Source of the DNA: an uncultured delta proteobacterium
Lineage (GTDB): Bacteria > Desulfobacterota > Desulfobacteria > Desulfobacterales > JAHEIW01
Length of the DNA stretch: 64,000 nucleotides
Assembly: GCA_963706575.1 (NCBI GenBank)
Contig: CAVPNL010000006.1
Span: 288,001-352,000, forward strand
Direction: 5' to 3'
The notes under the pieces were generated by a model that saw only the letters and a program-made list of their open reading frames with translations, ran no database searches and had not been told where the DNA came from. The position numbers and the translations under genes are program-made. The stretch's first letter is position 1. The number at the start of each line of letters is the position of its first letter. Shown here piece after piece: positions 2,588-23,587 of this stretch.

Positions 2588-2602
2588 TACCACAACGTAG
2601 CA
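2588..2602. promoter_or_regulatory. Putative operator (YRCCAC-N3-GTGGYR family) overlapping the sigma54 -12 element
   Basis: TACCACAACGTAGCA, 12/15 match to TGCCACAWTGTGGCA. Confidence 0.5.
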
Positions 2603-2614
2603 AGGGTTATGCCA
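2599..2614 (-). promoter_or_regulatory. Sigma54 (-24/-12) promoter of the REC-arrA operon
   Basis: Minus strand TGGCATAACCCTTGCT: exact GG-N10-GC spacing, close to consensus TGGCAC-N5-TTGC. Confidence 0.88.
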
Positions 2615-2778
2615 GAACGAACCCGAAAATCGTCAGGTGTTCAATTTAGGAGCATTTATGCGACAGGTTTAAATTTAAGCAATTGAAATTTAATCAAATA
2701 AAATTGAAGAGAAAAAGCTGGGAATTGAAAATTTAATTTCAGTAGAAGGGTGAATTGCAGGCAGGATTTTTTTAAACC

Positions 2779-2861
2779 TGTACGGGTTACAGACATAAAA
2801 ACTGGCGATATATTAGATTCTCATTTATATTAAACGGTTAGCTGTGTACGAATCCCGGACA
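2779..2861. promoter_or_regulatory. Pair of candidate enhancer (UAS) palindromes for the sigma54 activator
   Basis: TGTACGGGTTACAGACA (2779-2795) and TGTACGAATCCCGGACA (2845-2861), pattern TGTMCG-N5-CRGACA, 66 bp apart. An AT-rich tract separates them from the promoter. Confidence 0.65.
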
Positions 2862-2886
2862 CATTATTCAGCCTCAAACACATGAA

Positions 2887-3261
2887 TTATAATAGTGGCT
2901 TAAAAACCTCGCAGGATCGACAGATTTTCATTTTCTCTTTCCAATCCTTTTGGCTCATTCCTTCACAAATGGTTCCATTTATAAACCAGCAGAGATCGCC
3001 CGATCCAAACTCCCAGGCCGGGCAATCGCGTTTTTGCTGGGGCGGACATTTTTTTACAAACCAGCAGGGCTTTTGCTTTATGCCCTTTTGTTCCAATCTG
3101 GATACCAGGAAAAAGACCTGACGTTCGACATGCACCGGCACGGATCGCCAGCCCTGCTCATAGCTGTGAATGGCTTTCAGAGATGTCCCCAGCAGTTCGG
3201 CCATCTGTTTCTGGGTCTTGGCCAACCGCTTTCGATATTTTTTGAATTCGTTCTTATTCAT
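2887..3261 (-). CDS. XRE-type HTH regulator with C-terminal Cys-rich two-CW domain (paralog 1)
   Basis: KTQKQMAELLGTSLKAIHSYEQG HTH followed by CW..KKC......CPAW.....CWFINGTIC...C..CEVF (7 Cys). Confidence 0.85.
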   Translation of the reverse strand: MNKNEFKKYRKRLAKTQKQMAELLGTSLKAIHSYEQGWRSVPVHVERQVFFLVSRLEQKGIKQKPCWFVKKCPPQQKRDCPAWEFGSGDLCWFINGTICEGMSQKDWKEKMKICRSCEVFKPLL

Positions 3262-3366
3262 GTTTTCTTGTCGCGTGGGTTATCGACCAGGTTGCGTCGC
3301 TCTATGCAAAAAACCATGCCAGATGAGAGATACTAACATTACAGGGAAGCAGGGCCAAGCAAAAAA

Positions 3367-3381
3367 TGCCACATTGTGGTA
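3367..3381. promoter_or_regulatory. Putative operator upstream of two-CW regulator 1
   Basis: TGCCACATTGTGGTA, a near-perfect palindrome about 105 bp upstream of the start codon. Confidence 0.7.
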
Positions 3382-3400
3382 TTTTTCATTGCTCTAACCC

Positions 3401-5599
3401 CTAATGAATCGTTGGTTTGTTAATCTGATATTTTTTAAGTTTGTCATATAGCGTACTGCGGCTGATCCCCAGATGTAAGGCGGCCTTTTTCTTGTTCCAG
3501 TCGCATTCCTCCAAAACTTCCTGGAGCAATTTTTTCTCATTTTCAACGATCGTCCCCGGGGCTTCCGAAGAAATAGCCGGAGCAGCATCCCGAATGGCAG
3601 AGGGCAGATCCGAAATTTCGACTTTGCTTCGCTTGGCTAAAACGGCGGCGTGCTCAATGCTGTTTTCCAGTTCGCGAACGTTCCCCGGCCAGGGGTAATC
3701 CAGCAGCAGCCCCATGGCTTCCGAGCTGAAATCCTGAATTTCTTTATGCTGTTCAAGGGCAAATTTGGATAAAAAATGACGCGCCAGCAACGGAATATCG
3801 TTGCGCCGTTTTCTTAACGGGGGCAGGTGGATTGGAATAACATTGAGACGATAAAAAAGATCCTCACGAAAGGTTCCGTTTTTTACTTCTTGAATTAGAT
3901 CCTTATTGGTGGCGGCGAGAATGCGAACATCGACCTTGAGTTTCTCTTCGCCTCCGACACGTTCGAATTTTTGACTTTGCAAGACCCGCAGCAGCTTGAT
4001 CTGGGCTGAAGGCGCAATTTCGCCGATTTCATCTAAAAATACGGTACCGCCGTCTGCTTGTTCAAAACGTCCGAATTTTTGCCGGATGGCACCGGTAAAG
4101 GCGCCTTTTTCATGACCGAAGAGTTCGCTTTCCAAAAGTGTTGCCGGATAAGCTGAGCAGTTGATCACGACAAACGGATTATCCCTCCGTGGGCTCTGCC
4201 GATGAATGGCCCGGGCGACCAGTTCTTTACCGGTCCCGCTTTCCCCCTGAATAAGAATCGTTGCATCGGTGGGCGCGATATCTTCTATTAAACGATACAT
4301 ATTTTGCATCTTTGGGTCTTTACCAACCAGCCCGCTGAATTCAGCAGTATGTTCGATACGAGTCTTCAGCTCGCGGATCTCTTCTTCATGGATTGCCGAA
4401 CGGCGAATGGCGCCGGCAGTCTGGTTCAAAATCAGATCAATAATGTCCAGCTCTTTGGTGACACAGTTACAATTTCCGGGACAAGCGATCAGCAGCGCCC
4501 CTTGAAGTTGATTCTCGCTGCGCAGGGGGAAAACGATCAGATCTTGTGCGGTTTTAAATTCTAAGGGTAAAAATGTTGTGTTGGATGGTTCGACTTTAAC
4601 AAATTTGGATTGGTCTAAACCGAAAACAAGCGCAGCTGCCCTTTGCGTGGCGGCAATATCCAGAGTTCTGGATTCCTTCGCGGTTTGCAGGAAGATATTG
4701 TCGCCATTGCTACTGAATATCAACATACATAGATCCTTACAGGTGACAATGCTTTGCAGTTTTTTGATTAAATAGGCGCAAACATCCCTTAAATGAGTCA
4801 ACGCGCCGATTTCCTGGGCAATGGTAAATGATGTGTGTGTTTGCCGGTGGGCCCGATCGAGCTGACCGGTTTTCTCTTCAAGCCGCTGGGTGTAGTCCTT
4901 TATTCGAGTGACCATGTGGTTAAAAGAAGATGTCAATCTTCCGACTTCGTCCCGGCTGTTTAAAGGGACATTTAATTCAAGATTACCTTCATCAATTTTT
5001 TCAGCAGCTTTTGCCAATGCCGCCAAAGGCCTGGTTACACGTTTGATGAAGAAAAGGCTTCCACCGATTGCGAATAAAAGAATCGAAAAAGTTATTACGC
5101 TCATTTGAAGCCATAATTGTTTTACCTGGTCACGGAAAGGTTTTTCAGTGACGCCCAGCCGGAGGGTGCCGGCTTTTCCTGCAAAAATGGGCCAGGCAAT
5201 ATCCAAATATCGCTCTCCTTCGGTGGATACGATTTCTTTATGTCGATTATAATTATCCAGGACAATATCATTGACCCCTATAAGTTCGATTGGTATCCCC
5301 TGTGTAAATGTGTGAGCCAGAACCTGGTTTTCTTTAATAATAAAGATGTAGGCTGCGTGAGGCGTACTGGTCATATGGTAATCAAGCATTTTTTGAAGCG
5401 CCACCAGGTCATTGGTCAGGATCTTATCAGTGGCATCCAGCGCAACTGCCTGGGCTATATTTTCGGCCTGAGCGCTTAATGATGAAAACAGACTGCTACT
5501 ATACCGTTGGGTCACAACCAGCGAAATAAGTAATCCGCTACCGATAACCATAAGCGAAACGGCCATCAACAATTTATTTTTCAGACTTTGTGGGCGCAT
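3401..5599 (-). CDS. Membrane-anchored sigma54-dependent activator (TM-periplasmic sensor-TM-HAMP-GAF-AAA+-Fis HTH)
   Basis: Two TM segments, HAMP (DEVGRLTSSFNHM), Walker A GESGTGKE, GAFTGA, Walker B LDEIG, WPGNVREL and a C-terminal HTH. Start placed at MRPQS (SD GGAGG). Confidence 0.92.
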   Translation of the reverse strand: MRPQSLKNKLLMAVSLMVIGSGLLISLVVTQRYSSSLFSSLSAQAENIAQAVALDATDKILTNDLVALQKMLDYHMTSTPHAAYIFIIKENQVLAHTFTQGIPIELIGVNDIVLDNYNRHKEIVSTEGERYLDIAWPIFAGKAGTLRLGVTEKPFRDQVKQLWLQMSVITFSILLFAIGGSLFFIKRVTRPLAALAKAAEKIDEGNLELNVPLNSRDEVGRLTSSFNHMVTRIKDYTQRLEEKTGQLDRAHRQTHTSFTIAQEIGALTHLRDVCAYLIKKLQSIVTCKDLCMLIFSSNGDNIFLQTAKESRTLDIAATQRAAALVFGLDQSKFVKVEPSNTTFLPLEFKTAQDLIVFPLRSENQLQGALLIACPGNCNCVTKELDIIDLILNQTAGAIRRSAIHEEEIRELKTRIEHTAEFSGLVGKDPKMQNMYRLIEDIAPTDATILIQGESGTGKELVARAIHRQSPRRDNPFVVINCSAYPATLLESELFGHEKGAFTGAIRQKFGRFEQADGGTVFLDEIGEIAPSAQIKLLRVLQSQKFERVGGEEKLKVDVRILAATNKDLIQEVKNGTFREDLFYRLNVIPIHLPPLRKRRNDIPLLARHFLSKFALEQHKEIQDFSSEAMGLLLDYPWPGNVRELENSIEHAAVLAKRSKVEISDLPSAIRDAAPAISSEAPGTIVENEKKLLQEVLEECDWNKKKAALHLGISRSTLYDKLKKYQINKPTIH

Positions 5600-5603
5600 A
5601 CTT

Positions 5604-6539
5604 CTAATCCTCCAGCGATGCAAGTTCCAGATTTATTTTCCGGATGCTGTCATACCATTTATCTTTTGGTAATATAAATTTATCGATCATCAATTCTTTT
5701 AAAATCGCTTTCCCCTGTGGATCCTGATGCATGGTAAATAGCAGTATGCGAATTTTTGTCATGAGTTCAGATGATATAGAGTTTGAGGCCACCATTGGCG
5801 GTATGCCGTAGGGTTCTGATTTGCGAATAATGCGGGTTTTGGATGTGAAAATAGGATTTTTGTTGTTGTAATATTCCCAGATCAAACCGTCGACGGCGGC
5901 ACCGTCCACCAGGCCTTTGGCCACCGCCAATATGGCGTTGTCATGGCTGTAGGTGTAAATCGTTTTTTCAAAAAACGTTTCGGCTGTTTCTCCCATTTGC
6001 CAGAGCCAGTAAGTCGGGACCAACTTACCCGAATTCGAGTCGGGATCGGTAAACGCAAAAACACGTCCTCTGAGATCTTCGAGTGTTCGGAATTCACTCG
6101 TCTTATTTATAATCAAATAAGAATGATAAAAATGGCTGTTCTGAACCTCGGGTGTTGCCACCAACTGAAACCCATATTTTTCCTTGCCGACAACATAGGG
6201 TCCAGAGCATATAAAGGCCAAATCGATCTGGCCCTTGGCCAACAGTTCATTGATCTCCCCATAAGTTTTGCGCTGGATAAACTGAATTTCACGCCCCATT
6301 TTTTGGCCAATGTAGTCCAACAACTGCCGGTAATAGACGAAAGTTTCCTTAGGTGATATTATTGCGGCTACCGCAACTTTTAGCTGCGCGGATTCAGGAT
6401 CTGAACTTATCGGACGATCCACCGTCACAGTTTTAGAGAAATCAACCACAACGGCATCGCTGTCTTTGCCGCAGCCTGAAACATAAATCCCGATAAAAAA
6501 TATCAGGCAACCGATAATCAGTTTTGTCTTGTTTCCCAT
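5604..6539 (-). CDS. PhnD-family periplasmic oxyanion-binding lipoprotein, AioX/ArxX-like
   Basis: Lipobox VSGC, AFICSGPY (Cys at the AioX-like position), FTDPDSNSG, YSHDNAI, GAAVD; adjacent to the arr regulator. Confidence 0.85.
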   Translation of the reverse strand: MGNKTKLIIGCLIFFIGIYVSGCGKDSDAVVVDFSKTVTVDRPISSDPESAQLKVAVAAIISPKETFVYYRQLLDYIGQKMGREIQFIQRKTYGEINELLAKGQIDLAFICSGPYVVGKEKYGFQLVATPEVQNSHFYHSYLIINKTSEFRTLEDLRGRVFAFTDPDSNSGKLVPTYWLWQMGETAETFFEKTIYTYSHDNAILAVAKGLVDGAAVDGLIWEYYNNKNPIFTSKTRIIRKSEPYGIPPMVASNSISSELMTKIRILLFTMHQDPQGKAILKELMIDKFILPKDKWYDSIRKINLELASLED

Positions 6540-6607
6540 GCTGATGCGCCTTTCGAATTATACTGCAAACCTGTTCGTGTCTGAAAATCGTACACACAGT
6601 CTGGACA

Positions 6608-6622
6608 TACCACCATGTGGTG
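6608..6622. promoter_or_regulatory. Putative operator just downstream of a -35-like TTGACC (minus strand)
   Basis: TACCACCATGTGGTG. Confidence 0.55.
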
Positions 6623-6764
6623 GTTTTGGTCAACAAAATAATGCCATTGCTAATATTCTTCTAAAAAATACGATTTATGCCAGCGAAAAAAATCGTTTAA
6701 AGAAAAAAGACCGGTTACAATTGGAAGCGGTGTTAAAGTCTGAAACAAAAATCAACCCTTGAAC

Positions 6765-6779
6765 TGCCACGTTGTGGTG
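6765..6779. promoter_or_regulatory. Putative operator just downstream of a -35 TTGACA (minus strand)
   Basis: TGCCACGTTGTGGTG followed on the + strand by attttTGTCAA. Confidence 0.6.
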
Positions 6780-6976
6780 ATTTTTGTCAAGATAATTTTT
6801 CAATTTTAACAGGAATATCTTAGCGGATGGGCTTTACGAACGATTAGCGTACTGGATGGTAAGTTAATTATGGTCGGTGCAGGATCGTAGAAAGTATTAA
6901 ATTTTATTATGAGATATCATAAGACTTTAAGTTGCTTCTTAATAATTTCTGAATCGAATTGTTTTATCTTCATGCG

Positions 6977-8359
6977 TTAATGACCGGAATAGGCATCCTT
7001 CAAAACCTCGATCGGGTGAATGACCTTGTGAGGCGTAAGTTGGGTAAACTGCAGGCGGCAGCTCAGACAATCGGTCACGATATTATCAGGGCTGAGCGCT
7101 TTTATTTTGTGCATCAATCTGCCCCCCAGTTGAATCGACGCGTGGTGAAATTCTCTTTTAAACCCCATAATACCGGCCATGCCACAGCAAAAAAGGTTTC
7201 CATTGATGAGCTCCAGGGTGATGCCGGGGATTATTTTCAGCAGGTCCAGATACGGCCGCCCGATATTCTGCTCTCTTAAGTGGCAGGGAGGGTAATAGAC
7301 CATATGGCTAGATACCGGGCCGAATGTTGTCTGGAGTTCGCCTGATTTTTGAAGACCGGCTAAATAATCACCCAGATCATATGTATTTTCCGCCACCTGA
7401 ATGCGCTTAAGGGGACTCAAAGTTGAAAAATACCCTTCGTCTTTGAGAATCTTTTCGTACATAGCCTTTTTGACGTGTTCAAACTCCCGGTTCACCGGAT
7501 TATTCGATGCTTTTTCTTTCGGGAGTTTGAAATAAGCCTCATCCGCACCCACGGACTCCTGATATTCAGAGGAATAATAAGCGCCTTCCTTTAAGATATT
7601 TCTTAACATAAACCCGCAGGTCGGACAGGAGCAGACGATGTCATAGCCGCTCTCCACCGCCTCGGCCAGGCGATCCAGATTGAAACGCACAAATTCCATT
7701 GTCAATTTTCGGTCGCCCTCCAGCAGGCTTGGCATGCCGCAGCACTTTTGTTCCGGATAGTAGACCTCGATACCATTGTGTTGAAAAACTTCAACCGCGG
7801 CCTTTGGTACATCCGGGAACAGATAATTTGCCGTGCAACCTGAAAAATAGGCTATTTTTCGATTGGGCTGCTTCTGGGGTTGAGTATTTAAGCTGTTCTT
7901 TTTAGCCCACTGGGGAAAATTTTCTTGCGGAAATACTGGAATCCGGCGCTCCGGGTGAATTCCCGTGGCCGATTTAAAGAGTTCGCCGGTGAGCTTATGC
8001 TTGAAAAGAAAATTGGTCATCCGGGGAAACATGCCGCACAGCTTTCCGACGCGTTCAACATCCTCCAGGGTGCGCACGCCGAATTTTAGCCCATCTCTTT
8101 CGATGAATTGCGTTTTGGCCTTGATGATGTCTGCGCGGATATTCGGACACGGGCACAGCGCGCAGAAGTTGCACAGATCAACCAGTTTTCGAAGCTCATC
8201 AGAGCTAATCTTTTTACCCGTTTCGATCTCCTTATCATACAATCTGTATAACTCCGGAAACATGAGACAGTCTGAATCCATCAGGAATCGACAGACATCG
8301 CAATCCGAACAGGCGTCCACCACCATTCTTGCAGTGTTTTCAGGCTCATTATTTTCCAT
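6977..8359 (-). CDS. GlpC/HdrD-like Fe-S oxidoreductase (ferredoxin motifs plus two CCG domains)
   Basis: CSDCDVC, CNFCALC, YFSGC, CCGMP, CPTC, PCH, CCGMAG, DCLSCRLQ. Confidence 0.85.
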   Translation of the reverse strand: MENNEPENTARMVVDACSDCDVCRFLMDSDCLMFPELYRLYDKEIETGKKISSDELRKLVDLCNFCALCPCPNIRADIIKAKTQFIERDGLKFGVRTLEDVERVGKLCGMFPRMTNFLFKHKLTGELFKSATGIHPERRIPVFPQENFPQWAKKNSLNTQPQKQPNRKIAYFSGCTANYLFPDVPKAAVEVFQHNGIEVYYPEQKCCGMPSLLEGDRKLTMEFVRFNLDRLAEAVESGYDIVCSCPTCGFMLRNILKEGAYYSSEYQESVGADEAYFKLPKEKASNNPVNREFEHVKKAMYEKILKDEGYFSTLSPLKRIQVAENTYDLGDYLAGLQKSGELQTTFGPVSSHMVYYPPCHLREQNIGRPYLDLLKIIPGITLELINGNLFCCGMAGIMGFKREFHHASIQLGGRLMHKIKALSPDNIVTDCLSCRLQFTQLTPHKVIHPIEVLKDAYSGH

Positions 8360-8402
8360 TTACGGATTCGGTTTTCTCCCAGCTTTCATCATCAATGTAG
8401 CG

Positions 8403-9155
8403 CTAAATATTTAATGCTAAATAAGACTTGCGGCTAAACCTGTGAAGCACCGGAGTGCCCATACCGTGCCGGATGGCCTTTAGCAGTCTTCTCTCTTTCA
8501 GGGGGACCGTACCGGCGAGCATGTGCACGGGGAGGTGATCAAAGGCCCTGGCAACCATCGGTGTACTGGGACCCAGCATCAAGGTTTTTACTTTACCATG
8601 AACGTTTGCCAGTATTTCTTCGGTGCTGTTATTCAAAATCGAGGTCGATGTCAGAAACAGCACATCCGCCCGGCTTTTCAGGTTTTTATAAAAATCCGCC
8701 TTCCGGCCGAGCCCGCGGGATTGATCGAGGATATCGAGAACAGCTTCTCTTTGTTCAAAACGCTTGATCAAAGGGCCAAAGTAGCCAACCATCGCAACGT
8801 TTGTTCCCTTTGTGATTTTAAACTGTTCGAACATGATTTCGTTATTTTCATCTTCCGGTAACTGCAGCGCATGTTGATAGTTCAGCGCATTGACAAGGGC
8901 CAGCGCCATGCTTCTTTCAATCGGTTGGTCGCTTTTTATTTTTTCCAGTAGCGCAACTGCCGGCCGGTCTTCGTAATCAGTGGCTTCGTTTAACAGCATA
9001 CAGGATTTTTTATCTTCAAAATAGGTATAGGCGATCCCGATACCGCCGTCAGAAGTGGCCACAGCAGTATACCCCAGGCCGAGGCACAACAGTTCCACCC
9101 GTATTTTTTCAGCGTTATCCCTAAATAAGTTGAATAATTTGTCGTTGATGATCAT
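8403..9155 (-). CDS. DUF364/DUF4213-like (putative heavy-metal chelation, Rossmann-like) protein
   Basis: GLGYTAV..GGIGIA, ALVNAL, VAMVGYFGP, LTSTSILN, LGPSTP. Start moved to MIIND because the ORF-track start lies inside a repeat. Confidence 0.75.
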   Translation of the reverse strand: MIINDKLFNLFRDNAEKIRVELLCLGLGYTAVATSDGGIGIAYTYFEDKKSCMLLNEATDYEDRPAVALLEKIKSDQPIERSMALALVNALNYQHALQLPEDENNEIMFEQFKITKGTNVAMVGYFGPLIKRFEQREAVLDILDQSRGLGRKADFYKNLKSRADVLFLTSTSILNNSTEEILANVHGKVKTLMLGPSTPMVARAFDHLPVHMLAGTVPLKERRLLKAIRHGMGTPVLHRFSRKSYLALNI

Positions 9156-9195
9156 GGCTTTACCTTTATTAACTCCGGTGTCAGGGTGTTTTATC

Positions 9196-9269
9196 GTCAT
9201 GCCCGCGCTAGGCGGGCATCCCGCTTCTGCCGCAAAACATTTCTGGATTCCCGCCTTTGCGGGAATGAC
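9196..9269. repeat. Inverted pair of short palindromes of the GTCATTCCCGC..GCGGGAATC type
   Basis: GTCATGCCCGCGCTAGGCGGGCATCC ... GGATTCCCGCCTTTGCGGGAATGAC. Confidence 0.75.
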
Positions 9270-9303
9270 ACATGTGGAATGAAAAAACTTCCCGACCCCT
9301 CAA

Positions 9304-9786
9304 TTAACGGCTTTTGCTGAAATTCGGTATCCACTTGCCCGTCTTTTTCTTATATGCAATGTAGTTCAGTCCCCATTTTGCTTTCAGCAGTTTTTCCTCG
9401 TAGCCGGCGATATAATTATAGAATAGTGCAATTAGCACCAGCAGAGTAAGGCAAAACAGAGACGCTGTAGAAACCGTCATGCCGAAGTAAATTAAAATAC
9501 TGCCCAAATATAATGGGTGCCTGACGTATCGGAATGCTCCGGTAGATACAACTTCGTTAGCACGTTGATCTCCGCTGATAACCACATGACCGGACTTGAA
9601 AAGGTAAAAAGCGGCAGCCAATGCAGCCCCCAGGATAATTAAACGAATTACCAGCGGGATGCTATCCGCCAAAAATGTGGAGCGGTGCAGGATAAATGAA
9701 TCCAGGATCCATATAACAAGAAACAAACCGAACAGAATCAGCTGCCCTGCGTCTCCCAGGGGATGTTCACCGTTTTTTTCTCGCAT
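9304..9786 (-). CDS. Isoprenylcysteine carboxyl methyltransferase (ICMT/PEMT) family membrane protein
   Basis: TGAFRYVRHPLY and EEKLL..W..Y..Y motifs. Likely start MREKN with SD AAGGA. Confidence 0.85.
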   Translation of the reverse strand: MREKNGEHPLGDAGQLILFGLFLVIWILDSFILHRSTFLADSIPLVIRLIILGAALAAAFYLFKSGHVVISGDQRANEVVSTGAFRYVRHPLYLGSILIYFGMTVSTASLFCLTLLVLIALFYNYIAGYEEKLLKAKWGLNYIAYKKKTGKWIPNFSKSR

Positions 9787-9796
9787 CTTTCCTTTC

Positions 9797-10273: not shown

Positions 10274-10341
10274 CAAACTGCTCCTTTTATCAGACGATAG
10301 GTTTTATTACTGCCTTCCTGCCGAGGTGTCACCGAAAAAAA

Positions 10342-12608: not shown

Positions 12609-12610
12609 CT

Positions 12611-15181: not shown

Positions 15182-15199
15182 GTTTGATTTGGATGCGTT

Positions 15200-15655
15200 T
15201 TATTCGTTGCGGTGTTCCTCGATGCTGATCGGATCGCCGCACCGAATTTTTCCCTCTTTCAGCACCCGTGCAAAAACGCCTTCGCGCGGCATTATGCAAT
15301 CGCCGGCTTTGTAGTAAATGGCGCAGCGATTGTGGCACTCTTTGCCGATCTGGGTAATTTCAACCAGAGCATTCAGCCCCAGCCGGATACGGCTGCCCAC
15401 CGGAATGTTTTTCCAGTCAATGCCGGTGGTGGCGATGTTTTCGGCAAAATCGCCGAAAGTTACCTCAAGGCCTTTTTCACGGGCTTTATCTATTTCTTCA
15501 GAGGCCAGAAAACTGACCTGTCGATGCCATTTGCCGGCATGAGCATCGCCCTCGAGACCATGCTCCTTTTTTAAAAAGGCTTCATTAACCGTTACTTTTT
15601 GGGTTCCCTTTTTCTTGCTGGTTGCGATGGACACGATTTTCATTTTCATTTGCAC
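15200..15655 (-). CDS. MOSC domain protein
   Basis: GLEGDAHAG.WHRQVS, GDFAEN, QIGKECH..C, DCIMPREG. Confidence 0.92.
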   Translation of the reverse strand: MQMKMKIVSIATSKKKGTQKVTVNEAFLKKEHGLEGDAHAGKWHRQVSFLASEEIDKAREKGLEVTFGDFAENIATTGIDWKNIPVGSRIRLGLNALVEITQIGKECHNRCAIYYKAGDCIMPREGVFARVLKEGKIRCGDPISIEEHRNE

Positions 15656-15753
15656 CTTTTATTATCGGACCTCATAGCGTTTATTATTCAAAAGCGTACC
15701 TATTTAATAATAATCTCGATTTTCTATATTTAAAGACATTTTTGAGATGGATT

Positions 15754-16353
15754 CTAAATATTGCCAATCAAAAAAATGCCATAAGTCGCTCTGACATTGG
15801 GTAAAAATTTGATAATCTTGCCGTAGCGGTCCTGCGAATGGGCATTAATGGCAACTTCTTTTAAAATTTTCAAACCGACATCATGAATAAATTTTCTAAA
15901 ATCCTTGATGGTAATCACCCGAATATTGGGTGTGTTATACCATTGATAGGGCAGCTGTTTGGTGACCGGCGCATATCCGGAGCTCAGCAGCTGCATCCGA
16001 CAGGCCCAATGACTGAAATTCGGAAAACTGACAATACCCTTTTTGCCGATGCGCATTATTGCACGAATAAGTGTATCCGGCTCATAGACCTGCTGCAACG
16101 TCTGGCTCAAAATGACATAATCAAAAGTTTGTTCCGGATAATCGGGGACTTCCTCATTGATGTCTCCCTGCAGAACCGTTAATCCCTTTTCGATGCATGC
16201 GGCGACCTTTTCTTCCTGCAGTTCGATCCCCGAACCGGTCACCTTTTTTTTATTCATTAAATATCGCAGCAGTTCGCCGTTGCCACATCCCAGATCGAGA
16301 ACATGGGATCCCGGGTCTATCCAGCTGGCGATAATCTGAAGATCATAGCGCAT
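15754..16353 (-). CDS. metW: Methionine biosynthesis protein MetW
   Basis: MRYDL, VLDLGCGNG, ILSQTLQ, SFPNF.HW, WYNTPNI; follows metX. Confidence 0.93.
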   Translation of the reverse strand: MRYDLQIIASWIDPGSHVLDLGCGNGELLRYLMNKKKVTGSGIELQEEKVAACIEKGLTVLQGDINEEVPDYPEQTFDYVILSQTLQQVYEPDTLIRAIMRIGKKGIVSFPNFSHWACRMQLLSSGYAPVTKQLPYQWYNTPNIRVITIKDFRKFIHDVGLKILKEVAINAHSQDRYGKIIKFLPNVRATYGIFLIGNI

Positions 16354-16357
16354 TCTG

Positions 16358-17530
16358 TTATTTTGTGTTTTCACGGCAGACACGTTCTAAAAATCCTTTG
16401 ATCAAAGTTGTCAATCGTGGGTTGGGGATTAAAAAGGCGTCGTGGCCCCACTCGGCTTCGATTTCACAAAAGCTTACATCCAGTCCGTTTTTCTTCATGG
16501 CTTTGACCATGGCCTTGGATTGGTAGGTTGGGTAGAGCCAGTCGGAAGTAAAGGATACCACCAGAAATTTGGCTTTGGCCTTTGAAAAGGCTTTTACCGC
16601 TGAGCCTTCACCGTATTGATTTCCCATGTCATAATAATCGCTGGCCTTGGTGATGTAGAGAAAGGAGTTGGCATCGAAGCGATCCACAAATTTTTTGCCC
16701 TGATAACGCAAATAACTTTCCACCTGGAAATCTGCATCGAAGTTAAATGAAAAATCGCCCTTATCCTGTAAGCGCCGCCCGAACTTGAGACGCATGGATT
16801 CATCCGATAAATAGGTAATATGGCCGATCATGCGGGCCACCGCCAGCCCCAGATTCGGTTTGGGCCCGTAATAATAGTTGCCGCTGTTCCAGTTGGGGTC
16901 GGCCATGATCGCCTGTCTGGCCACCTCGTTAAAAGCAATGGCCAGGGCCGAGTGTTTGGTAGTGCTGGCCAGTGGAATGGCTGAAACCACCATGTCCGGG
17001 TACCTTACCGCCCACTCCAGCACCTGCATGCCGCCGATAGAGCCGCCGACCACGCACAAAATTTTTTCGATTCCCAGATGATCCATCAGTTTTTTTTGGG
17101 CCGCAACCATGTCGCCGATGGTAACCACCGGAAAATCAAGCGCATAGGGCTGGATATTTTTCGGGTTGGTGCTGCAGGGCCCGGTAGATCCCATACAGCT
17201 GCCGATAATATTGGAGCAGATTACAAAATATTTACCGGTATCAATTCCCTTGCCGGGTCCCACCATAATATCCCACCAGCCGGGCTTTTCGTCGTCTTCC
17301 TTATAATAGCCGGCGGCGTGAGAATCTCCGGAAAGGGCATGCAGAATCAAGATGACATTGCTTTTGTCTGCATTTAATTCACCGTAGGTTTCATAGGCAA
17401 GGGTTACCGGTCCGAGTCTGGCGCCGTTTTCCAGTACCATTTCATCGGGCGGCTCGGCAAAAGTGAAGAATTTCTTCTCCACAATACCCACGGAAATGCC
17501 TTCTTGATCGTGTTCGATATATTCGCTCAT
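16358..17530 (-). CDS. metX: Homoserine O-acetyltransferase
   Basis: HALSGD, GGSIGGMQ, FDANS, SDWLYP, GHDAFL. Confidence 0.95.
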   Translation of the reverse strand: MSEYIEHDQEGISVGIVEKKFFTFAEPPDEMVLENGARLGPVTLAYETYGELNADKSNVILILHALSGDSHAAGYYKEDDEKPGWWDIMVGPGKGIDTGKYFVICSNIIGSCMGSTGPCSTNPKNIQPYALDFPVVTIGDMVAAQKKLMDHLGIEKILCVVGGSIGGMQVLEWAVRYPDMVVSAIPLASTTKHSALAIAFNEVARQAIMADPNWNSGNYYYGPKPNLGLAVARMIGHITYLSDESMRLKFGRRLQDKGDFSFNFDADFQVESYLRYQGKKFVDRFDANSFLYITKASDYYDMGNQYGEGSAVKAFSKAKAKFLVVSFTSDWLYPTYQSKAMVKAMKKNGLDVSFCEIEAEWGHDAFLIPNPRLTTLIKGFLERVCRENTK

Positions 17531-17558
17531 AACCGAAAAACCGTTAAATCTGGATATA

Positions 17559-17623
17559 ACCACGAAAACACGAAAAACTTATCTTTTTTCTTTCGTGTTT
17601 CAGTTTTTTCGTGCTTTCGTGGT
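17559..17623. repeat. ACCAC...GTGGT periodic inverted-repeat element
   Basis: ACCACGAAAACACGAAAA ... TTTCGTGCTTTCGTGGT. Confidence 0.8.
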
Positions 17624-17752
17624 GAATAATTTTTTAATATCAGATTCTACAATGCCAGAAACAAGGCCCCTTTTTTACCGCCCATCCAAATCACGGTGCA
17701 AAAAGGGCCATCTGATTTTGTTACTTGATTTTTTTTATAAGGGCAAGAGAAA

Positions 17753-19039
17753 TCAGGTTTGGGCAAATGCCTGTTCTAAATCCTGCTTGATATCATCAAT
17801 GTGCTCGAGACCGATTGACAGGCGCACAAGATTCGGCGTCAATCCACCGGCTCTTTGTTGTTCTTCGCTTAATTGCGAGTGGGTCGTACTTGCAGGGTGA
17901 ATAACAAGACTTTTGGCATCTCCGACATTTGCCAGATGAGAAAACAGTTTCAGGCTGTCCACAAATTTTTGGCCGGCTTCAAGACCGCCTTTAATCCCAA
18001 AAACCACCATGCCGCCGAAACCGTTTTTAAGGTATTTGCTGGCAACCGGGTAGGTTGGATCATCCTCTAAGCCGGGATAACGCACCCATTCCACGTTGGC
18101 GTGTTCCTTCAGGAATCGAGCCACCGCGGATGCGTTTTCACAATGGCGCTGCATGCGCAGAGGCAGGGTTTCCAATCCCTGTAAAAACATCCAGGCATTG
18201 TCCGGGGAAATACATGCTCCCAGGTTGCGCAGGGGCACCAGCCGCATTCGCAGGATAAAAGCGATGGGATTCATGTCGCCCAGATCATGGGCGTAACGGA
18301 TATCGTGGTAGCTGGGATCAGGCTCGTTGTAGAGCTTAAATTTTGGGTCCTGCCAGTCAAATTTTCCCGAATCGATCACAATGCCGCCAATACCGGTGCC
18401 GTGTCCTCCCATCCATTTGGTGAGGGAATTCACGACGATGTCGGCCCCATGCTCGATTGATTTCAGCAAATAGGGCGAGGTAAAGGTGGCATCGACAATC
18501 AACGGCAGATTGTGGCTGTGGGCAATCTCAGCGACTGCGCTGATGTCTGTAAACTCCAGCACCGGATTGCCGATGGTTTCAATAAATATGGCCCGGGTTT
18601 TATCGGTGATTACATTGGCAAAATTGTCCGGATCGCGGGCATCCGCAAAGTTTACCTGGATGCCGAATTGCGGAAGAATGCAATCAAACATCGTATAGGT
18701 GCCGCCATATAAGTTGGTGGCAGATACGATTTCATCCCCGGCCTCACAGATATTGATAATCGTATAATACACTGCCGATGTACCGGAAGCTAAGGCCAGT
18801 GCTGCTGCTCCGCCTTCCAGCGCCGCAACCCGCTGCTCGAGTACATCCTGGGTGGGATTCATGATTCGGGTGTAAATATTTCCCGGTTCCTTGAGTGCAA
18901 AAAGATTGGCGGCATGTTCGGTGCTGTTGAATACATAAGAAGAAGTGCGGTGCACCGGCACCCCTCTGGCGGTGGTGGCCGGATCGGGTTGCTGGCCGGC
19001 GTGCAGACACTGTGTTTCAAATTTATAATTGTCATTCAT
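17753..19039 (-). CDS. metY: O-acetylhomoserine aminocarboxypropyltransferase (sulfhydrylase)
   Basis: GNIYTRIMNPT, LYGGT, SLTKWMGGHG (PLP Lys), ANVGDAKSL, HPASTTH. Confidence 0.95.
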   Translation of the reverse strand: MNDNYKFETQCLHAGQQPDPATTARGVPVHRTSSYVFNSTEHAANLFALKEPGNIYTRIMNPTQDVLEQRVAALEGGAAALALASGTSAVYYTIINICEAGDEIVSATNLYGGTYTMFDCILPQFGIQVNFADARDPDNFANVITDKTRAIFIETIGNPVLEFTDISAVAEIAHSHNLPLIVDATFTSPYLLKSIEHGADIVVNSLTKWMGGHGTGIGGIVIDSGKFDWQDPKFKLYNEPDPSYHDIRYAHDLGDMNPIAFILRMRLVPLRNLGACISPDNAWMFLQGLETLPLRMQRHCENASAVARFLKEHANVEWVRYPGLEDDPTYPVASKYLKNGFGGMVVFGIKGGLEAGQKFVDSLKLFSHLANVGDAKSLVIHPASTTHSQLSEEQQRAGGLTPNLVRLSIGLEHIDDIKQDLEQAFAQT

Positions 19040-19145
19040 TTTTCGGATCCTATTTTTTAAAGTTGGAATTTTCAGGCGTGCTGACGGTCAGCCAGCACGG
19101 CAGATGATTTTCGGTGAAAGGGTTTATGTTTTTGCTGCAGGAAGC

Positions 19146-19523
19146 TTATCCGATCAGGGGCCCAAATACTTCACAGGTCTTGCAGATCTTCATTTTTTCT
19201 TTCCAGTTTTTCTGAGCCGTACCGTCGCAAATGGTTCCATTGATAAACCAACAAAGCTCACCCGCCCCGAACTCCCAGGCCGGGCATTGGCTTTTTTGTT
19301 CCGGGCTGCATTTTTTAACCTGCCAGCAGGCTTTCAATTTGCCTTTTTGGGAATTTTGCTTAACGGTTAAAAAATACATCTGGCGTTCAACCGCTGCAGG
19401 AACACTGCGCCAACCCTGCTCATAGCTGTGCACGGCCTTAAGCGATACACCCAATAGCTGGGCCATTTGAGCCTGAGTTTTGCCTAATTTTGCTCTAAAC
19501 TCTTTAAACTCTGAACTTTCCAT
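19146..19523 (-). CDS. XRE-type HTH regulator with two-CW domain (paralog 2)
   Basis: Highly similar to 2887..3261, with the same 7 Cys and the SLKAxHSYEQGWRSVP helix. Confidence 0.85.
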   Translation of the reverse strand: MESSEFKEFRAKLGKTQAQMAQLLGVSLKAVHSYEQGWRSVPAAVERQMYFLTVKQNSQKGKLKACWQVKKCSPEQKSQCPAWEFGAGELCWFINGTICDGTAQKNWKEKMKICKTCEVFGPLIG

Positions 19524-19575
19524 AAGATTCTTCCCTTAGCTGAACGTTTATTTATTATAAGGTAAGAATATAATT

Positions 19576-19600
19576 TGATACATTGTGGCAGTTGTGTCAA
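19576..19600 (-). promoter_or_regulatory. -35 TTGACA followed by putative operator TGCCACAATGTATCA
   Basis: Minus strand TTGACA-caac-TGCCACAATGTATCA, upstream of two-CW regulator 2 and metY. Confidence 0.7.
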
Positions 19601-19638
19601 CAAAAAATATATAGAAGTGGTTTCAAAACCCCATCTAA

Positions 19639-20724
19639 TCACAGCGCGGCGCTGATAATGCCGCCGCCCAACACCGTATCATCAGCATAGATTACCGCCG
19701 ACTGTCCGGGGGTTACCGACATCTGTGGTTTTTTAAATAATATCCTGGTTTGCTCCCGATCCGGCGGATAAACCGTTGCATCCGTCTCTTTGTGCCGGAG
19801 GCGGATTTTGACCTGTACGTCCAGCGGCCGCTCGATGCGATCGACGCCAATCAAATTTAAATCGGTGGCAACCAGACCTTTTGAACGATGCTCATGATGG
19901 CTGACAACAATACGATTTTTGGCCGCATCGATTCGACTGACATACAGGGGCTTATGGGAGGCGATGCCAAGGCCGCGGCGCTGGCCGATGGTATAATGGA
20001 TGATCCCCCGGTGTTCCCCGAGGACCTGACCTTTTTCATCCACAATTTCTCCGGCTTCAATTTCGTCTTCAGAAAAAAGAATGGAATAATCCCCGCCGTC
20101 AATAAAATCCTGGCTTTCTTCGCGATCTGCTGTTTCCAGCCCGAGCGCGCGCGCCATCTCCCGGACCTGCTGCTTGGTATGATCTCCCACCGGAAATAGT
20201 GAGCGTGCGAGCTGCTGCGGTCTGAGGCCGTAAAGAAAATAAGTCTGATCTTTAACGCGGTCCGCAGCGCGCTTCAACAAAAAGCGGTTACCCGACTTTA
20301 CAATCCGGGCGTAATGACCGGTGGCAAAATAATCAAAATCGCAACCGGCCTGTCTGGCCTTTTCCAGAAGAAAGCCGAACTTGAGTTTCTGGTTGCACAC
20401 CACGCATGGATTTGGGGTTTTGCCTTCCAGGTATTCGTTTCGGAAGTAATCGATAACATGATTTTTATATTCCTGCCGCAAGTCAATTGCCTGAAACGGA
20501 ATCTTGAGCTTTTCGCAAATGGCGGCCGCCGATTCAACATCTTCTTTCTCGCCGGGGCCGTAGCAGGCATGTTTGGCAGATTCATCAAACTGAATGGATC
20601 CATCATAAATTTCCATGGTAATACCGTAAACTTCATAATCCTGTTTGCGCAGCAATGCTGCGGCAACCGAAGAATCCACGCCACCGCTCAGTCCAACCGC
20701 TACTTTTATTTTTTTATTTTTCAT
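19639..20724 (-). CDS. mnmA: tRNA 2-thiouridine(34) synthase, variant
   Basis: SGGVDS, TPNPCVVCN, ATGHY, KDQTYFL, YTIGQRRGL, VTPGQ. The usual ESQxxCF Cys is absent. Confidence 0.92.
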   Translation of the reverse strand: MKNKKIKVAVGLSGGVDSSVAAALLRKQDYEVYGITMEIYDGSIQFDESAKHACYGPGEKEDVESAAAICEKLKIPFQAIDLRQEYKNHVIDYFRNEYLEGKTPNPCVVCNQKLKFGFLLEKARQAGCDFDYFATGHYARIVKSGNRFLLKRAADRVKDQTYFLYGLRPQQLARSLFPVGDHTKQQVREMARALGLETADREESQDFIDGGDYSILFSEDEIEAGEIVDEKGQVLGEHRGIIHYTIGQRRGLGIASHKPLYVSRIDAAKNRIVVSHHEHRSKGLVATDLNLIGVDRIERPLDVQVKIRLRHKETDATVYPPDREQTRILFKKPQMSVTPGQSAVIYADDTVLGGGIISAAL

Positions 20725-20772
20725 TATAAAATTCTCCAAAGGAGAATCAACCTCATCGAACGACATCCGACT

Positions 20773-20844
20773 ACCACGAAGAACACGAAGAAATATTTAG
20801 CTAAAACCTTTTAAGCGCTTCTTGAACTTCGTGTCCTTCGTGGT
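20773..20844. repeat. ACCAC...GTGGT periodic inverted-repeat element
   Basis: ACCACGAAGAACACGAAG ... CTTCGTGTCCTTCGTGGT. Confidence 0.8.
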
Positions 20845-20856
20845 GAAATATTGTTT

Positions 20857-21705
20857 TTACGATTTCTTCAAGGCCGCATTCAGTGAACCGCTTTTAAAGC
20901 CGTCTAAATCCAGGGTGACATATAAAAAGCCGAATCCGTGAAGCTTTTGGCTGATGGCCTCTCGATGCCGAATGGCCAACTCGAAATCCTCAGGTGCGAC
21001 TTCGATCCGGGCCGTATCGCCGTGGTGCCGCACTCTGAGCACCTTAAAGCCGAGACCGCTCAGAAAATCTTCTGCAGCCTCAATCTGTTTGAGCTTCTCC
21101 ACGCTGACCTCCTGGCCGTAGGCAATTCGGCTGGCCATGCAGGGCATGGCGGGTTTGTCGGCAACTTCCAGGCCGAAAAAGTTGCAGACCGTTCGGATTG
21201 CGGTTTTATCCATTTTCAATTCCAAATAAGGAGCCTGAATGGCGGCTTCGTCAGCCGCCTGCATGCCCGGACGGTAATCACCAAGATCATCAAGATTAAC
21301 CCCGTAAAAAACCGGCCAGGATGAGTGGCTGAAGGGATTGCCCGGCTGCATGCGCAGTTCCTCGATCCTTTCAAACAGGGCTTTCTTGCAATGGTAACAG
21401 CGATCGCTCTGGTTTGCTGCATAAAACGGATTTTGCATTTCGCGAGTATCAATAATTTCTAAAGGAATGTCGTGCGCCTTTGCAAAAGCCACGGCATGGC
21501 GGTATTCCCTGCGCGAAAGCGAGGGGCTGTCTGCCAGAGCGGCCAGCATATTATCTCCTAAATTCAGATGGGCGACATATGCCAGCAGGGCACTGTCGAC
21601 CCCGCCACTGTATGCGATGATGGCCCCTTCATGGCCGGAAAAATACGCTTTTAAATTTGCGGCCCAGGCTTCAGGGGCTAGATTTTGTTTTGCGGTTTTC
21701 TGCAT
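20857..21705 (-). CDS. larE: LarE-family ATP-dependent sulfur transferase (PP-loop)
   Basis: AYSGGVDS, RCYHCKK, DDLGDYRPG, PCMASRIAYG, RVRHHG..ARIE, GFKSGSLN. Confidence 0.88.
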   Translation of the reverse strand: MQKTAKQNLAPEAWAANLKAYFSGHEGAIIAYSGGVDSALLAYVAHLNLGDNMLAALADSPSLSRREYRHAVAFAKAHDIPLEIIDTREMQNPFYAANQSDRCYHCKKALFERIEELRMQPGNPFSHSSWPVFYGVNLDDLGDYRPGMQAADEAAIQAPYLELKMDKTAIRTVCNFFGLEVADKPAMPCMASRIAYGQEVSVEKLKQIEAAEDFLSGLGFKVLRVRHHGDTARIEVAPEDFELAIRHREAISQKLHGFGFLYVTLDLDGFKSGSLNAALKKS

Positions 21706-21733
21706 CTCAGAGTATTTTCAAGAAAAAAGTTTC

Positions 21734-21811
21734 ACCACAAAGGCACGAAGAGTTCAAAGAAAAAAAAATTTATACTGCTTGAGCACTTTGTGAACTTTGT
21801 GCCTTTGTGGT
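21734..21811. repeat. ACCAC...GTGGT periodic inverted-repeat element
   Basis: ACCACAAAGGCACGAAGAGTTCAAAG ... CTTTGTGAACTTTGTGCCTTTGTGGT. Confidence 0.8.
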
Positions 21812-21858
21812 TGAATATTGTTAAATGGCAAATGCTAAGCGATATAAAATCTGGATTT

Positions 21859-21883
21859 TGTTACATTGTGGCAGTTTAGTCAA
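21859..21883 (-). promoter_or_regulatory. -35-like TTGACT followed by putative operator TGCCACAATGTAACA
   Basis: Same architecture as 19576-19600; lies upstream of larE-mnmA. Confidence 0.7.
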
Positions 21884-22093
21884 TGAAAAAAACAACTTGG
21901 ATGGCAATGGGAATTCGGAAGGGTCAACCAAACAAAGGAAAATGGGTTAAGGCAAGAAAATCAAGTCATCTCCCCCCCCCTGTAAAAAGGGGCTGAAGCA
22001 ATAACGTTGTCGCCCTTATTGAAACCTTACAATGTTTTTGAAAAAGTGGTCGGCTGCAAAACCGCATCGCCCTGCGCAACCGCAAGCCGGTTT

Positions 22094-22642
22094 TTACCGG
22101 AGCGTTTCTACATCATCGATCGCGTATTTTATCTTTTTGACTGTTTTGAGCATACGGGTATAAGCCATGGCCAAACCAATGTTTCTTGCCAACACCGACA
22201 GCGAGTCCACATCTTTTTCCGAAATGTCCCAAACGTCATGATGATAGAGTCGCAGGGCTCCGATAACGTTATCATAAAATTTGATGGGAATGGACACGAT
22301 GGCCCCGATGCCTTCTTTTTTAGCATCCTCAGGGTATTGCAGGCGGTCAGTCTTATTTATATCTCGAATGATAATTGGCGTTCCCTCTAATGTCCCGCCA
22401 ATGCTTTTATCTTTTAGAATCGGACCCTTATGGACGTAACTCATGCTTAACCCAAAGCTTGCCAATACTTCCAGCTCTTCTGTTTCCGGATTTATCACAA
22501 AAATCGTACATCCTTTCATTTCAAGCGTTGCGACCAGCAACTGCGTAAGGTGATTGGCCATAATTTCCAGATTATCCGATTGGGCCATTGCTTTGAAGAC
22601 GACTTTAAAAAGATCAATATCTATTTTTTCTTCGGCTGGCAT
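22094..22642 (-). CDS. Stand-alone GAF domain protein
   Basis: GCTIF..LEVLASFGLS, YPEDAKKEGI..IVSIP..IGALRLY. Confidence 0.85.
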   Translation of the reverse strand: MPAEEKIDIDLFKVVFKAMAQSDNLEIMANHLTQLLVATLEMKGCTIFVINPETEELEVLASFGLSMSYVHKGPILKDKSIGGTLEGTPIIIRDINKTDRLQYPEDAKKEGIGAIVSIPIKFYDNVIGALRLYHHDVWDISEKDVDSLSVLARNIGLAMAYTRMLKTVKKIKYAIDDVETLR

Positions 22643-22657
22643 GAAATCCCTCCTTTT

Positions 22658-23122
22658 CTAAGATACAATACAAACAGTGACGCCCTTGAGGGTCATTACG
22701 ACCTTATGTGAAATACTGCCCGAGAAAAAGCGGGTGACCCGAGCATGTTTTCGATTGAGAACAATGATGTCGAACTTATCACTGGTCGCCAGTTCAATAA
22801 TTTCGGAAGCGATATCCTTTTTTCGGGGCCTAAAAATACAATCAACCCGGTTTTCCGGGAAACCACCTTCAATGAGTTTATCCTTGACTTCATCAAGCAG
22901 TGCCTCATATTCCTTAATTTTCTGGGAAAGATAACTTAAGCTTCCCTTGAGTTTGCTTGTTACCGAAGTTGCATCCGTATCAATCTCAGGAATCGGCGTG
23001 TATGCATTAAATACGGTAACTGAAATATTCTCCAACTTCCCGAAGGTGTTGGTCACGAAATTCAGCGCTTTTTGGTCAAGGTGGGTAAAATGATAGGGCA
23101 GCAATAGTTTTTGAGTGGCCAT
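22658..23122 (-). CDS. Universal stress protein family
   Basis: DIASEII..FDIIVL..FFSGSISHKVV..VCIV. Confidence 0.8.
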   Translation of the reverse strand: MATQKLLLPYHFTHLDQKALNFVTNTFGKLENISVTVFNAYTPIPEIDTDATSVTSKLKGSLSYLSQKIKEYEALLDEVKDKLIEGGFPENRVDCIFRPRKKDIASEIIELATSDKFDIIVLNRKHARVTRFFSGSISHKVVMTLKGVTVCIVS

Positions 23123-23587
23123 TGGTTTCCCCCTTAAGGCTTATTCGGGTTTGACAGATATAGGCATATACCTCGCGGCCAGAATAGGAGGTATCAAAAG
23201 AACGGTTCAAGCGAGTAAATAGCGCCTGTGTACCGTATATAAGGACAATTGGAAAGGGTGGATAACAGGATTCGGGTCCGGCGCTGCTGCAGTACCAAGG
23301 TAATTTATCTGCGAGGGTGAGATACCCAGTACGCACAATTGATTATCCGTTTGCAGTGAAAAAAGTCTCATAAAGTGGTGGCATGTGTCAATAAAAAATT
23401 TTGTTTTAAATGGATTTGCATTTAGCCGATTTTTTCTAAAACCGCGATTTCTCAGTATTTAAAACCCTTGATTTTTGCCTGCAAAATTGAAATGGTGTTA
23501 AGCTCCATTTTTTGCGGCTGAAAAATCCAGTCTGAGAATACAAACAGCAAATTAATTATCTGCTAAGCCCCTTACAGGAGATCACCG

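Follow-up and report, generated by a model that had tools for sequence, protein, structure and literature searches.

A conserved palindrome and its probable XRE-two-CW regulator at sulfur-supply and arsenate-respiration genes of Desulfobacterota

Which protein reads a short palindrome that recurs in front of arsenate-respiration genes, sulfur genes and two small regulator genes on one stretch of bacterial DNA, and what does it report to them? The window analysed here is the whole stretch of 64,000 nucleotides (C6:288001-352000) from the 5.67-Mb genome of an uncultured delta proteobacterium of the Desulfobacterales, in which dsrA is present. An earlier note on this DNA had suggested that two proteins with an XRE-type helix-turn-helix (HTH) and a cysteine-rich two-CW domain bind the palindrome YRCCAC-N3-GTGGYR. 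Sulfate reducers of the Desulfobacterales type play a large part in the sulfur cycle of marine sediments, and our literature search found no described regulator of their genes for cysteine, methionine and iron-sulfur (Fe-S) supply. Based on comparison with related genomes, the operator is real and conserved and apparently undescribed, and its predicted assignment to the XRE-two-CW family is well supported. We consider it fairly probable that TRCCAC-N3-GTGGYA is the operator of a dimeric XRE-two-CW repressor of sulfur-supply genes, which reports a shortfall of sulfur or Fe-S.

The palindrome and the regulator that accompanies it

All six full palindromes described in the earlier note (2588, 3367, 6608, 6765, 19576 and 21859) were verified in position and letters, and they score 14.6-24.1 bits with our refined matrix; the element near usp is indeed a half-site only (23378-23383), scoring below 9 bits. 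With two mismatches allowed, the pattern of the note is not above chance within the window alone (20 found, 17.3 expected). Exact matches number 11 in the whole genome, three of them in the window. A first matrix, built from 12 distinct sites all taken from other genomes, had its top 20 of 20 genome matches (at least 16 bits) in intergenic DNA, which makes up 21% of the genome. Using the refined matrix, whose training set includes the regulator-2 site of this genome, 16 intergenic matches reached at least 17 bits (0.6 in shuffles, 0 for the reversed matrix) and 25 reached at least 15 bits (2.8 and 3, respectively). Genes in the genome scans were called with our own simple caller. The genome-wide scan with a position weight matrix that had been proposed thus returned about 25 intergenic sites, far above the shuffled control.

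The 80 homologue loci used for comparison are those of the best-scoring relatives, hence biased to kin, and gave 66 non-redundant upstream regions. De novo motif search in these regions returned CCAC-N3-GTGG as the top inverted repeat, present in 21 of 66 promoters against 0.1 expected, and recovered the consensus palindrome TRCCAC-N3-GTGGYA; the matrix matched with at least 14 bits in 50 of them, compared with 0.3 in shuffles. A site was present at 113 of 138 distinct regulator genes with enough upstream DNA, the median distance to the gene start being 71 nt, and both regulator genes of the window have one, in support of the autoregulation that had been predicted for the two-CW genes. Among 36 genomes of other families, the 18 with a full-length regulator contain 50 strict matches (control 16), with 17 genomes positive, while the 18 without it contain 11 (control 11), with six genomes positive, three of which are less than 85% complete. 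Across 300 genomes of the phylum, a match was found in 34 of 50 regulator bearers and in 33 of the 250 others, many of the matches being the autoregulatory site. Besides, none of 20 desulfurase promoters of regulator-lacking genomes has the site.

Family f83 (L311-L316, e.g. L311:1281-3542, minus strand) has a protein of about 750 aa in which the regulator is joined to PAS domains and a histidine kinase. A DNA-binding domain on a kinase is unusual, and in five f83 loci two T-variant operators lie between the fused kinase and a divergent tmcD-tmcC-tmcB operon. The six kinase fusions have R instead of K at helix residue 29, alongside other helix changes, and all 12 half-sites of their operators have T instead of C at position 3, a letter present in 28 of 218 half-sites of K29 proteins. 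Two genomes hold both a fused and a solo regulator, and their solo copies retain C-type half-sites. The recognition helix and the site thus change together in the kinase-fused clade. The comparative evidence of footprint, co-occurrence and covariation supports the palindrome as the operator of the XRE-two-CW family, and we regard binding by the regulator as very likely.

Both regulators, which are 66% identical, match the two-CW model NF045718, an NCBIfam entry that is a domain model only, with 50.9 and 51.5 bits (cut-off 35). PF01381 is matched with 26.1 bits by regulator 2 (over the cut-off of 23) and with 22.2 bits by regulator 1. The structural matches of the predicted regulator are XRE-type, and residues 1-63 of the model fit the XRE fold of 2ox6 (Z 10.8, root-mean-square deviation 2.0, 63 aligned residues), while neither regulator matched any Rrf2 model in NCBIfam (E up to 0.001) or Pfam (E up to 0.01). 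More than 3,400 relatives are present in the database, where relatives of the regulator are labelled Desulfobacterales. Cysteines C66, C72, C80, C91, C114 and C117 are conserved in at least 110 of 112 homologues, and C99 in 100. A first structure model from 18 rows, with a poor Cys domain (predicted local distance difference test, pLDDT, 67) and no match in the Protein Data Bank (PDB), was replaced by a model from 112 rows (pLDDT 95.1). Residues 60-125 gave HTH matches only or nothing in Foldseek, VIA-align, a PDB sequence profile and the ESM Atlas; the domain stands within the whole model, so that a new fold is not implied. The predicted homodimer scored 0.52 against 0.00 for the best control, with at least 66% shared contacts and pLDDT of at least 81; the mark set for this score was attained for 20 of 30 solved pairs and for 1 of 23 single chains. 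In the predicted dimer, Cys-domain residues 81-107 contact residues 22-26 and 51-59 of the partner HTH, and a change in the Cys domain could therefore move the DNA-reading helices.

The two-CW domain was found in none of 14 control genomes and, in this analysis, only in anaerobe lineages. Elsewhere it is fused to MOSC, to a sigma-54 activator and to chemoreceptor-like proteins with tandem copies (P0146, P0220, P0265, P0271 and P0273, five proteins from a longer-length search which missed the kinase fusions); the activator and chemoreceptor-like assignments were made by eye from the sequences.

The position of the sites relative to the promoters suggests how the regulator might act. In the window, four full sites lie downstream of a TTGAC hexamer, as had been noted, at 5 nt (6608 and 6765) or 4 nt (19576 and 21859), and 84 of the 113 autoregulatory sites begin 4-5 nt past a TTGAC-like box, so that most of them occupy the stretch between -35 and -10. 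Their left half lies within this spacer, and the right half-site reaches into the extended -10 region. MerR-type activators have their operator in an over-long -35/-10 spacer; with the 4-5 nt gap, the last TA of the site stands 17-18 nt past the -35 box, i.e., at normal spacing and at the position where a -10 box is expected to start. Other registers include sites 0-2 nt past TTGACA and tandem sites (15 of 113). Since these variable registers all cover polymerase-binding DNA, the regulator, if it binds, probably represses. The repressor position after a -35 box that had been proposed thus holds for the four window sites, but not for the arr site, which overlaps a sigma-54 promoter and has no -35 box.

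The putative regulon and the arr promoter

In the 80 loci, the regulator has as neighbours metX (33), metY (30), metW (25), larE (19), usp (18), GAF (18) and MOSC (17), followed by cysE (12), moeA (12), mnmA (11), the activator (10), nifS (8), cysK (6), tusA (5) and hdrC/hdrB (5). The same gene types recur in distant families, where the order is site-regulator-metY-metX-metW-cysE-cysK (G049 and G026) or the site lies between the regulator and nifU-nifS(-cysE-cysK) (G029, G039 and G057). Sites in the genes' own promoters in other genomes, in counts that are inflated and biased by the many loci fetched via the motif, were found for usp (14 of 19), receiver/arr (7 of 9), the binding protein (7 of 8), larE (7 of 23), nifU (5 of 12), cysE (4 of 20), metY (4 of 52), hdrC-like (4 of 8), ycaO (4 of 4), YHS (4 of 5) and rseC (3 of 3). 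Further sites in this genome precede tusA-nifS-nifU (divergent from napA), rrf2-hmcAB (in tandem) and fmdE.

The earlier note had proposed a regulon joining arsenate respiration with sulfur, methionine and tRNA-thiolation genes. The links to metY, larE, mnmA and arrA are conserved, but this scope was too narrow, as about 25 sites throughout the genome extend it to nifU/nifS/tusA, cysE, hdrC, rrf2-hmc, rseC and usp, and the arr link is specific to some lineages. The gene content suggests that the core job of the regulator is probably cysteine and methionine synthesis, sulfur trafficking and Fe-S assembly, as with CymR and IscR elsewhere.

Several arrangements around these targets were also observed. 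A hdrC-hdrB(-hdrA)-like set occurs repeatedly with cysK/cysE/nifS or directly behind the operator (L350:1935-7325; L111:8465-14294; L062; L087; L101; L102; L113), and may supply sulfide for cysteine synthesis. The napA operon with DsrO/DsrP-like partners is divergent from tusA-nifS-nifU with the operator in between (L036:3776-9314; C6:272776-278314), and a strong site at C6:278502 lies between the convergent nifU and tauE. Behind a marR-dsrE2-tusA-tmcC/B-like cluster, four small genes without annotation, one of them with weak likeness to DsrE, are preceded by tandem operators (L039:4978-6338), and homologues of these small genes also have sites in G022, G023, G025 and G058. The Rrf2 gene heading hmcAB (L038:4474-4821; C4:518550-518897) encodes 115 aa, compared with 143-152 aa in G022 and G023, and may be truncated or frameshifted.

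The arrA gene of the window is assigned to the respiratory arsenate reductases, with RGRY fitting the (R/K)GRY motif and 1145.7 bits to ArrA 6cz7; against NF041714 it scores 1282.6 bits over the full length, under the cut-off of 1600, with the next best family at 249 bits. Protein search found arrA in 16 of 61 genomes, and as one locus has no upstream DNA and another a gap, 14 promoters are readable. The operator is present with at least 13 bits in 11 of these (10 of 13 without this genome), the remaining loci having one site at 10 bits, one decayed site and, in G053, none. In seven of eight arr promoters inspected, the first three bases of the operator coincide with the sigma-54 -12 element, and in the eighth it lies just after the -12; in four of the 14 loci (two with at least 13 bits, the 10-bit site and the decayed one) the element is about 8 nt downstream of the -12. 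Only one of 53 sigma-54-like promoters in this genome bears the operator. A different motif, TGT-N11-ACA, has 11 matches in the genome, three of them in the window, recurs in eight of 15 other arrA loci, and forms candidate enhancer copies 165 and 231 nt upstream of the arr sigma-54 promoter. Arsenate respiration is a lineage-specific member of the putative regulon. A cassette of binding protein, activator, regulator and receiver also stands before another molybdoenzyme that is not ArrA (L107:8781-15082; best match PhsA-type, 323 bits, below cut-off).

Proposed mechanism and competing explanations

We propose that an XRE-two-CW dimer would sit on the palindrome and probably block RNA polymerase as long as its Cys domain is loaded, and that it would be released when sulfur or Fe-S supply is short, a shortfall reported by a metal cofactor on the Cys domain, for which an Fe-S cluster would be the most likely candidate. 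Release would free cysteine and methionine synthesis, sulfur relay, tRNA thiolation and cluster assembly. In arr-bearing lineages, with the operator over the sigma-54 -12 element, arr would need two inputs, namely that an arsenate-sensing activator occupies its own enhancer and that the two-CW repressor is released. Such gating by a sulfur signal would be coherent, because arr encodes a Mo/Fe-S enzyme for conditions in which an acceptor other than sulfate is in use. Our best reading is therefore a role like that of CymR or IscR in many Desulfobacterota, which would also gate arsenate respiration.

The nature of the cofactor is a matter of guesses. An Fe-S cluster is tentatively favoured, because the domain is Cys-rich, is found here in anaerobe lineages only, recurs as an input module and apparently controls nifU/nifS as IscR does. 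A Zn-thiolate or persulfide switch is a less likely guess, partner-protein sensing with a structural Zn a doubtful one, and direct As(III)/Cu(I) sensing is improbable; among the thiol, Fe-S or metalloid signals that had been suggested earlier, direct metalloid sensing is the least likely. A more far-reaching proposal, to which we give limited credence, is that XRE-two-CW is an undescribed master switch of Desulfobacterota, in which a sulfide-labile Fe-S centre in the 7-Cys domain (no solved relative) would read the cell's own sulfide production, so that, when the cell makes none, a single operator would release the genes of sulfur assimilation and relay together with alternative respiratory chains (arr and perhaps nap, hmc and tmc). 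Electron-acceptor choice would then be coupled to sulfur supply, and the domain, because it also occurs in fusions with kinases, chemoreceptors and a sigma-54 activator, would be a sensor module of general use.

Several observations weigh against an operator of two-CW repressors dedicated to sulfur supply. Kin are non-independent in all of the counts above, and the helix-site covariation is a single event, because the six fusions form one clade in a quick tree; three other R29 proteins are mixed at position 3 (T 3, C 2, G 1). At 13 bits, 25 of the 138 regulators have no site, and genome G043 has the regulator and no strict motif match. Part of the conservation of the right half-site may serve the promoter. 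Many of the strong targets in this genome have no link to sulfur (pal, rseC-multicopper oxidase, etf/acyl-CoA dehydrogenase, an MFS gene and cytochromes), and no site (best 4.4 bits) was found at its cysE, cysK, second nifU-nifS, thiI-like gene, hdrB, tmcD, cooS or ycaO; a Rrf2 gene lies near cysEK. Replacement by Rrf2 where the regulator is missing, as a simple swap with IscR or CymR, was considered and is unsupported, with Rrf2 beside nifS in only one of 20 regulator-lacking loci.

The same regulator and operator could also respond to oxidative or nitrosative stress, or to the redox state of the electron acceptors, with the sulfur genes as the repair arm of a redox-stress regulon. A 7-Cys domain suits O2 or NO sensing, and sites stand before hcp (hydroxylamine reductase), cooS, cytochrome c', rrf2-hmc, multicopper oxidase, usp, the napA/tusA region and tmcDCB of the fused clade. 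However, genes of sulfide incorporation and sulfur relay are the neighbours that recur most consistently, and most stress-type targets occur in only one to four genomes each, usp (14 of 19) being the exception, which makes this explanation unlikely. Direct sensing of arsenite or copper at a trithiol site, with a regulon shielding thiols and Fe-S clusters from metal(loid)s, would agree with the conserved arr site, with copper-type targets (multicopper oxidase, YHS, HMA and Metal_resist) and with an arsenite methyltransferase in one regulator locus. It is very unlikely given that arrA occurs in only 16 of 61 genomes, compared with about 40 having a full-length regulator, that no ars efflux operon is among the annotated targets, and that a candidate sensor pair is encoded within the arr cluster itself.

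On the other hand, the motif might be bound by an unlinked factor, either a Rrf2 protein or the adjacent sigma-54 activator, with the two-CW genes as mere targets. Rrf2 genes are present in 42 of 61 relatives and the activator adjoins the regulator in 10 of 80 loci, but the motif follows the two-CW gene across genomes and not Rrf2, helix and site co-vary among the kinase fusions, whereas C-type half-sites are retained by the solo copies of the two genomes that have both forms, and the activator has the separate TGT-N11-ACA motif; we consider this just as improbable as an arsenite or copper sensor. That the element is a promoter feature (spacer and extended -10) or a relic of ACCAC...GTGGT repeats, and no operator at all, is extremely unlikely. 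The single register of 84 of 113 sites after TTGAC and the abundance of the repeats in the genome (20 and 83 matches) would fit this view, but other sites begin 0-2 nt past TTGACA, are arranged in tandem or lie on sigma-54 promoters, there in two different registers; the left half is in the spacer, and genomes without the regulator have the motif no more often than the control. The possibility raised earlier that the sites are repeat relics fails because orthologous promoters share them and their occurrence follows that of the regulator.

Comparison with known systems and gene map of the window

The predicted regulator would be a ligand-gated XRE repressor, in itself a known kind, acting in an IscR or CymR role through an uncharacterised two-CW sensor domain. 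A literature search on the domain, the accession NF045718 and the motif found no characterised operator for this family, as the earlier note had stated, with subscription journals, the RegPrecise database and supplements outside its scope. In the part of PMC11672702 at hand, IscR of E. coli, a Rrf2-family protein, is described as a regulator of Fe-S supply. The two-CW sites likewise precede nifU/nifS/tusA and the regulator's own gene, but the two-CW regulator has an XRE HTH and not the Rrf2 fold, a 7-Cys C-terminal domain and a different operator, and it also heads metYXW and precedes cysE. CymR is the master repressor of cysteine metabolism in B. subtilis and S. aureus, and the rrf2-iscS-iscU-trmU cluster of C. 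perfringens (cpe1786-iscS-iscU-trmU) is upregulated on cysteine limitation, according to the sections consulted of PMC2940859. Gene types shared with these systems around the two-CW regulator are the desulfurase, scaffold, mnmA/trmU, cysE and cysK; the fold is unrelated to that of CymR, which senses via a complex with CysK, whereas the two-CW protein has its own Cys-rich domain.

Control of met genes is shared with SahR, MetR, MetJ and SamR of Proteobacteria, and SahR exerts it in delta-proteobacteria (PMC4239095). In the portion of that survey used here, these regulators have ArsR, LysR or other folds, their motifs differ (20-bp SahR palindrome, ATGAA-N5-TTCAT and MET box), and the delta groups of the survey table are Desulfovibrionales and Desulfuromonadales. 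The AioXSR, ArxXSR and ArrXSR modules place a binding protein and regulator beside arsenic oxidoreductase genes, and a RGRY-type motif is named for ArrA (PMC6549141, in part). The PhnD-like protein and sigma-54 activator of the window resemble these modules, but the second factor, with its predicted operator over both the sigma-54 promoter and the sensor-gene promoter, is a layer that does not appear in the consulted part of PMC6549141. Overall, this analysis yields a protein family of more than 3,400 relatives, together with a precise operator sequence, a list of targets and a naturally occurring specificity variant; for arsenate respiration it predicts a further layer of control, and it offers a handle on the two-CW sensor domain.

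On the minus strand, the window has arrA, the receiver-like gene, regulator 1, the HAMP-sigma-54 activator and the PhnD-like protein, and further on metW-metX-metY, regulator 2, mnmA, larE, GAF and usp (Table 1). Beyond the window edge the arr operon runs on with arrB-like, NrfD-type and TorD-like genes, followed by cofactor genes, tusA-nifS-nifU and napA.

Table 1. Genes and predicted regulatory elements in the window (window coordinates).
Feature	Position	Strand	Basis or remark
arrA, respiratory arsenate reductase catalytic subunit, 5' part (runs off window; 860 aa full)	3..2090	-	1145.7 bits to ArrA 6cz7; RGRY motif
Stand-alone receiver-like protein, first arr operon gene	2139..2528	-	Weak PF00072; in 15/15 arrA loci with upstream DNA
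Predicted operator, 19.6 bits; first three minus-strand bases coincide with the sigma-54 -12 element	2588..2602	.	Matrix scan and promoter comparison
Predicted sigma-54-type -24/-12 promoter of arr operon	2599..2614	-	Similar element in 13/16 arrA loci
Candidate sigma-54 activator enhancer, different motif (TGT-N11-ACA type), copy 1	2779..2795	.	
Candidate activator enhancer, copy 2	2845..2861	.	Motif recurs in 8/15 other arrA loci
Regulator 1, XRE HTH and two-CW domain, 124 aa, 7 Cys	2887..3261	-	
Predicted operator, 24.1 bits (joint best of genome), upstream of regulator 1	3367..3381	.	
HAMP, sigma-54 AAA+ and HTH_8 activator, start uncertain	3401..5623	-	Profile matches
PhnD-like binding protein, AioX/ArrX-like by context	5604..6539	-	TIGR01098 over cut-off, PF12974
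Candidate activator enhancer, copy 3	6578..6594	.	
Predicted operator, 14.6 bits	6608..6622	.	5 nt after minus-strand TTGACC
Predicted operator, 16.6 bits	6765..6779	.	5 nt after minus-strand TTGACA
MOSC-domain protein	15200..15655	-	Recurrent neighbour; regulator fusion in two database proteins
metW	15754..16383	-	TIGR02081 over cut-off
metX, homoserine O-acetyltransferase	16358..17563	-	NF001209 over cut-off
metY, O-acetylhomoserine sulfhydrylase	17753..19039	-	TIGR01326 over cut-off
Regulator 2, XRE HTH and two-CW domain, 125 aa, 7 Cys	19146..19523	-	Directly upstream of metY
Predicted operator, 18.7 bits, autoregulatory site of regulator 2	19576..19590	.	4 nt after TTGACA
mnmA, tRNA 2-thiouridine synthase	19639..20766	-	NF001138 over cut-off
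larE-family sulfur transferase	20857..21705	-	TIGR00268 over cut-off
Predicted operator, 19.1 bits, upstream of larE-mnmA	21859..21873	.	4 nt after TTGACT
usp and GAF genes	22094..23122	-	Recurrent neighbours, each in 18/80 loci
Operator half-site upstream of usp, <9 bits	23378..23383	-	2 nt after TTGACA

Inverted ACCAC...GTGGT repeats, distinct from the operator, lie between genes at window positions 20780-20845 and 21735-21810, and the 20 and 83 genome matches given above are to patterns related to them. A sigma-54-like element with spacing one base too long is present on the minus strand at window positions 3314-3330, between the 3367 operator and regulator 1.

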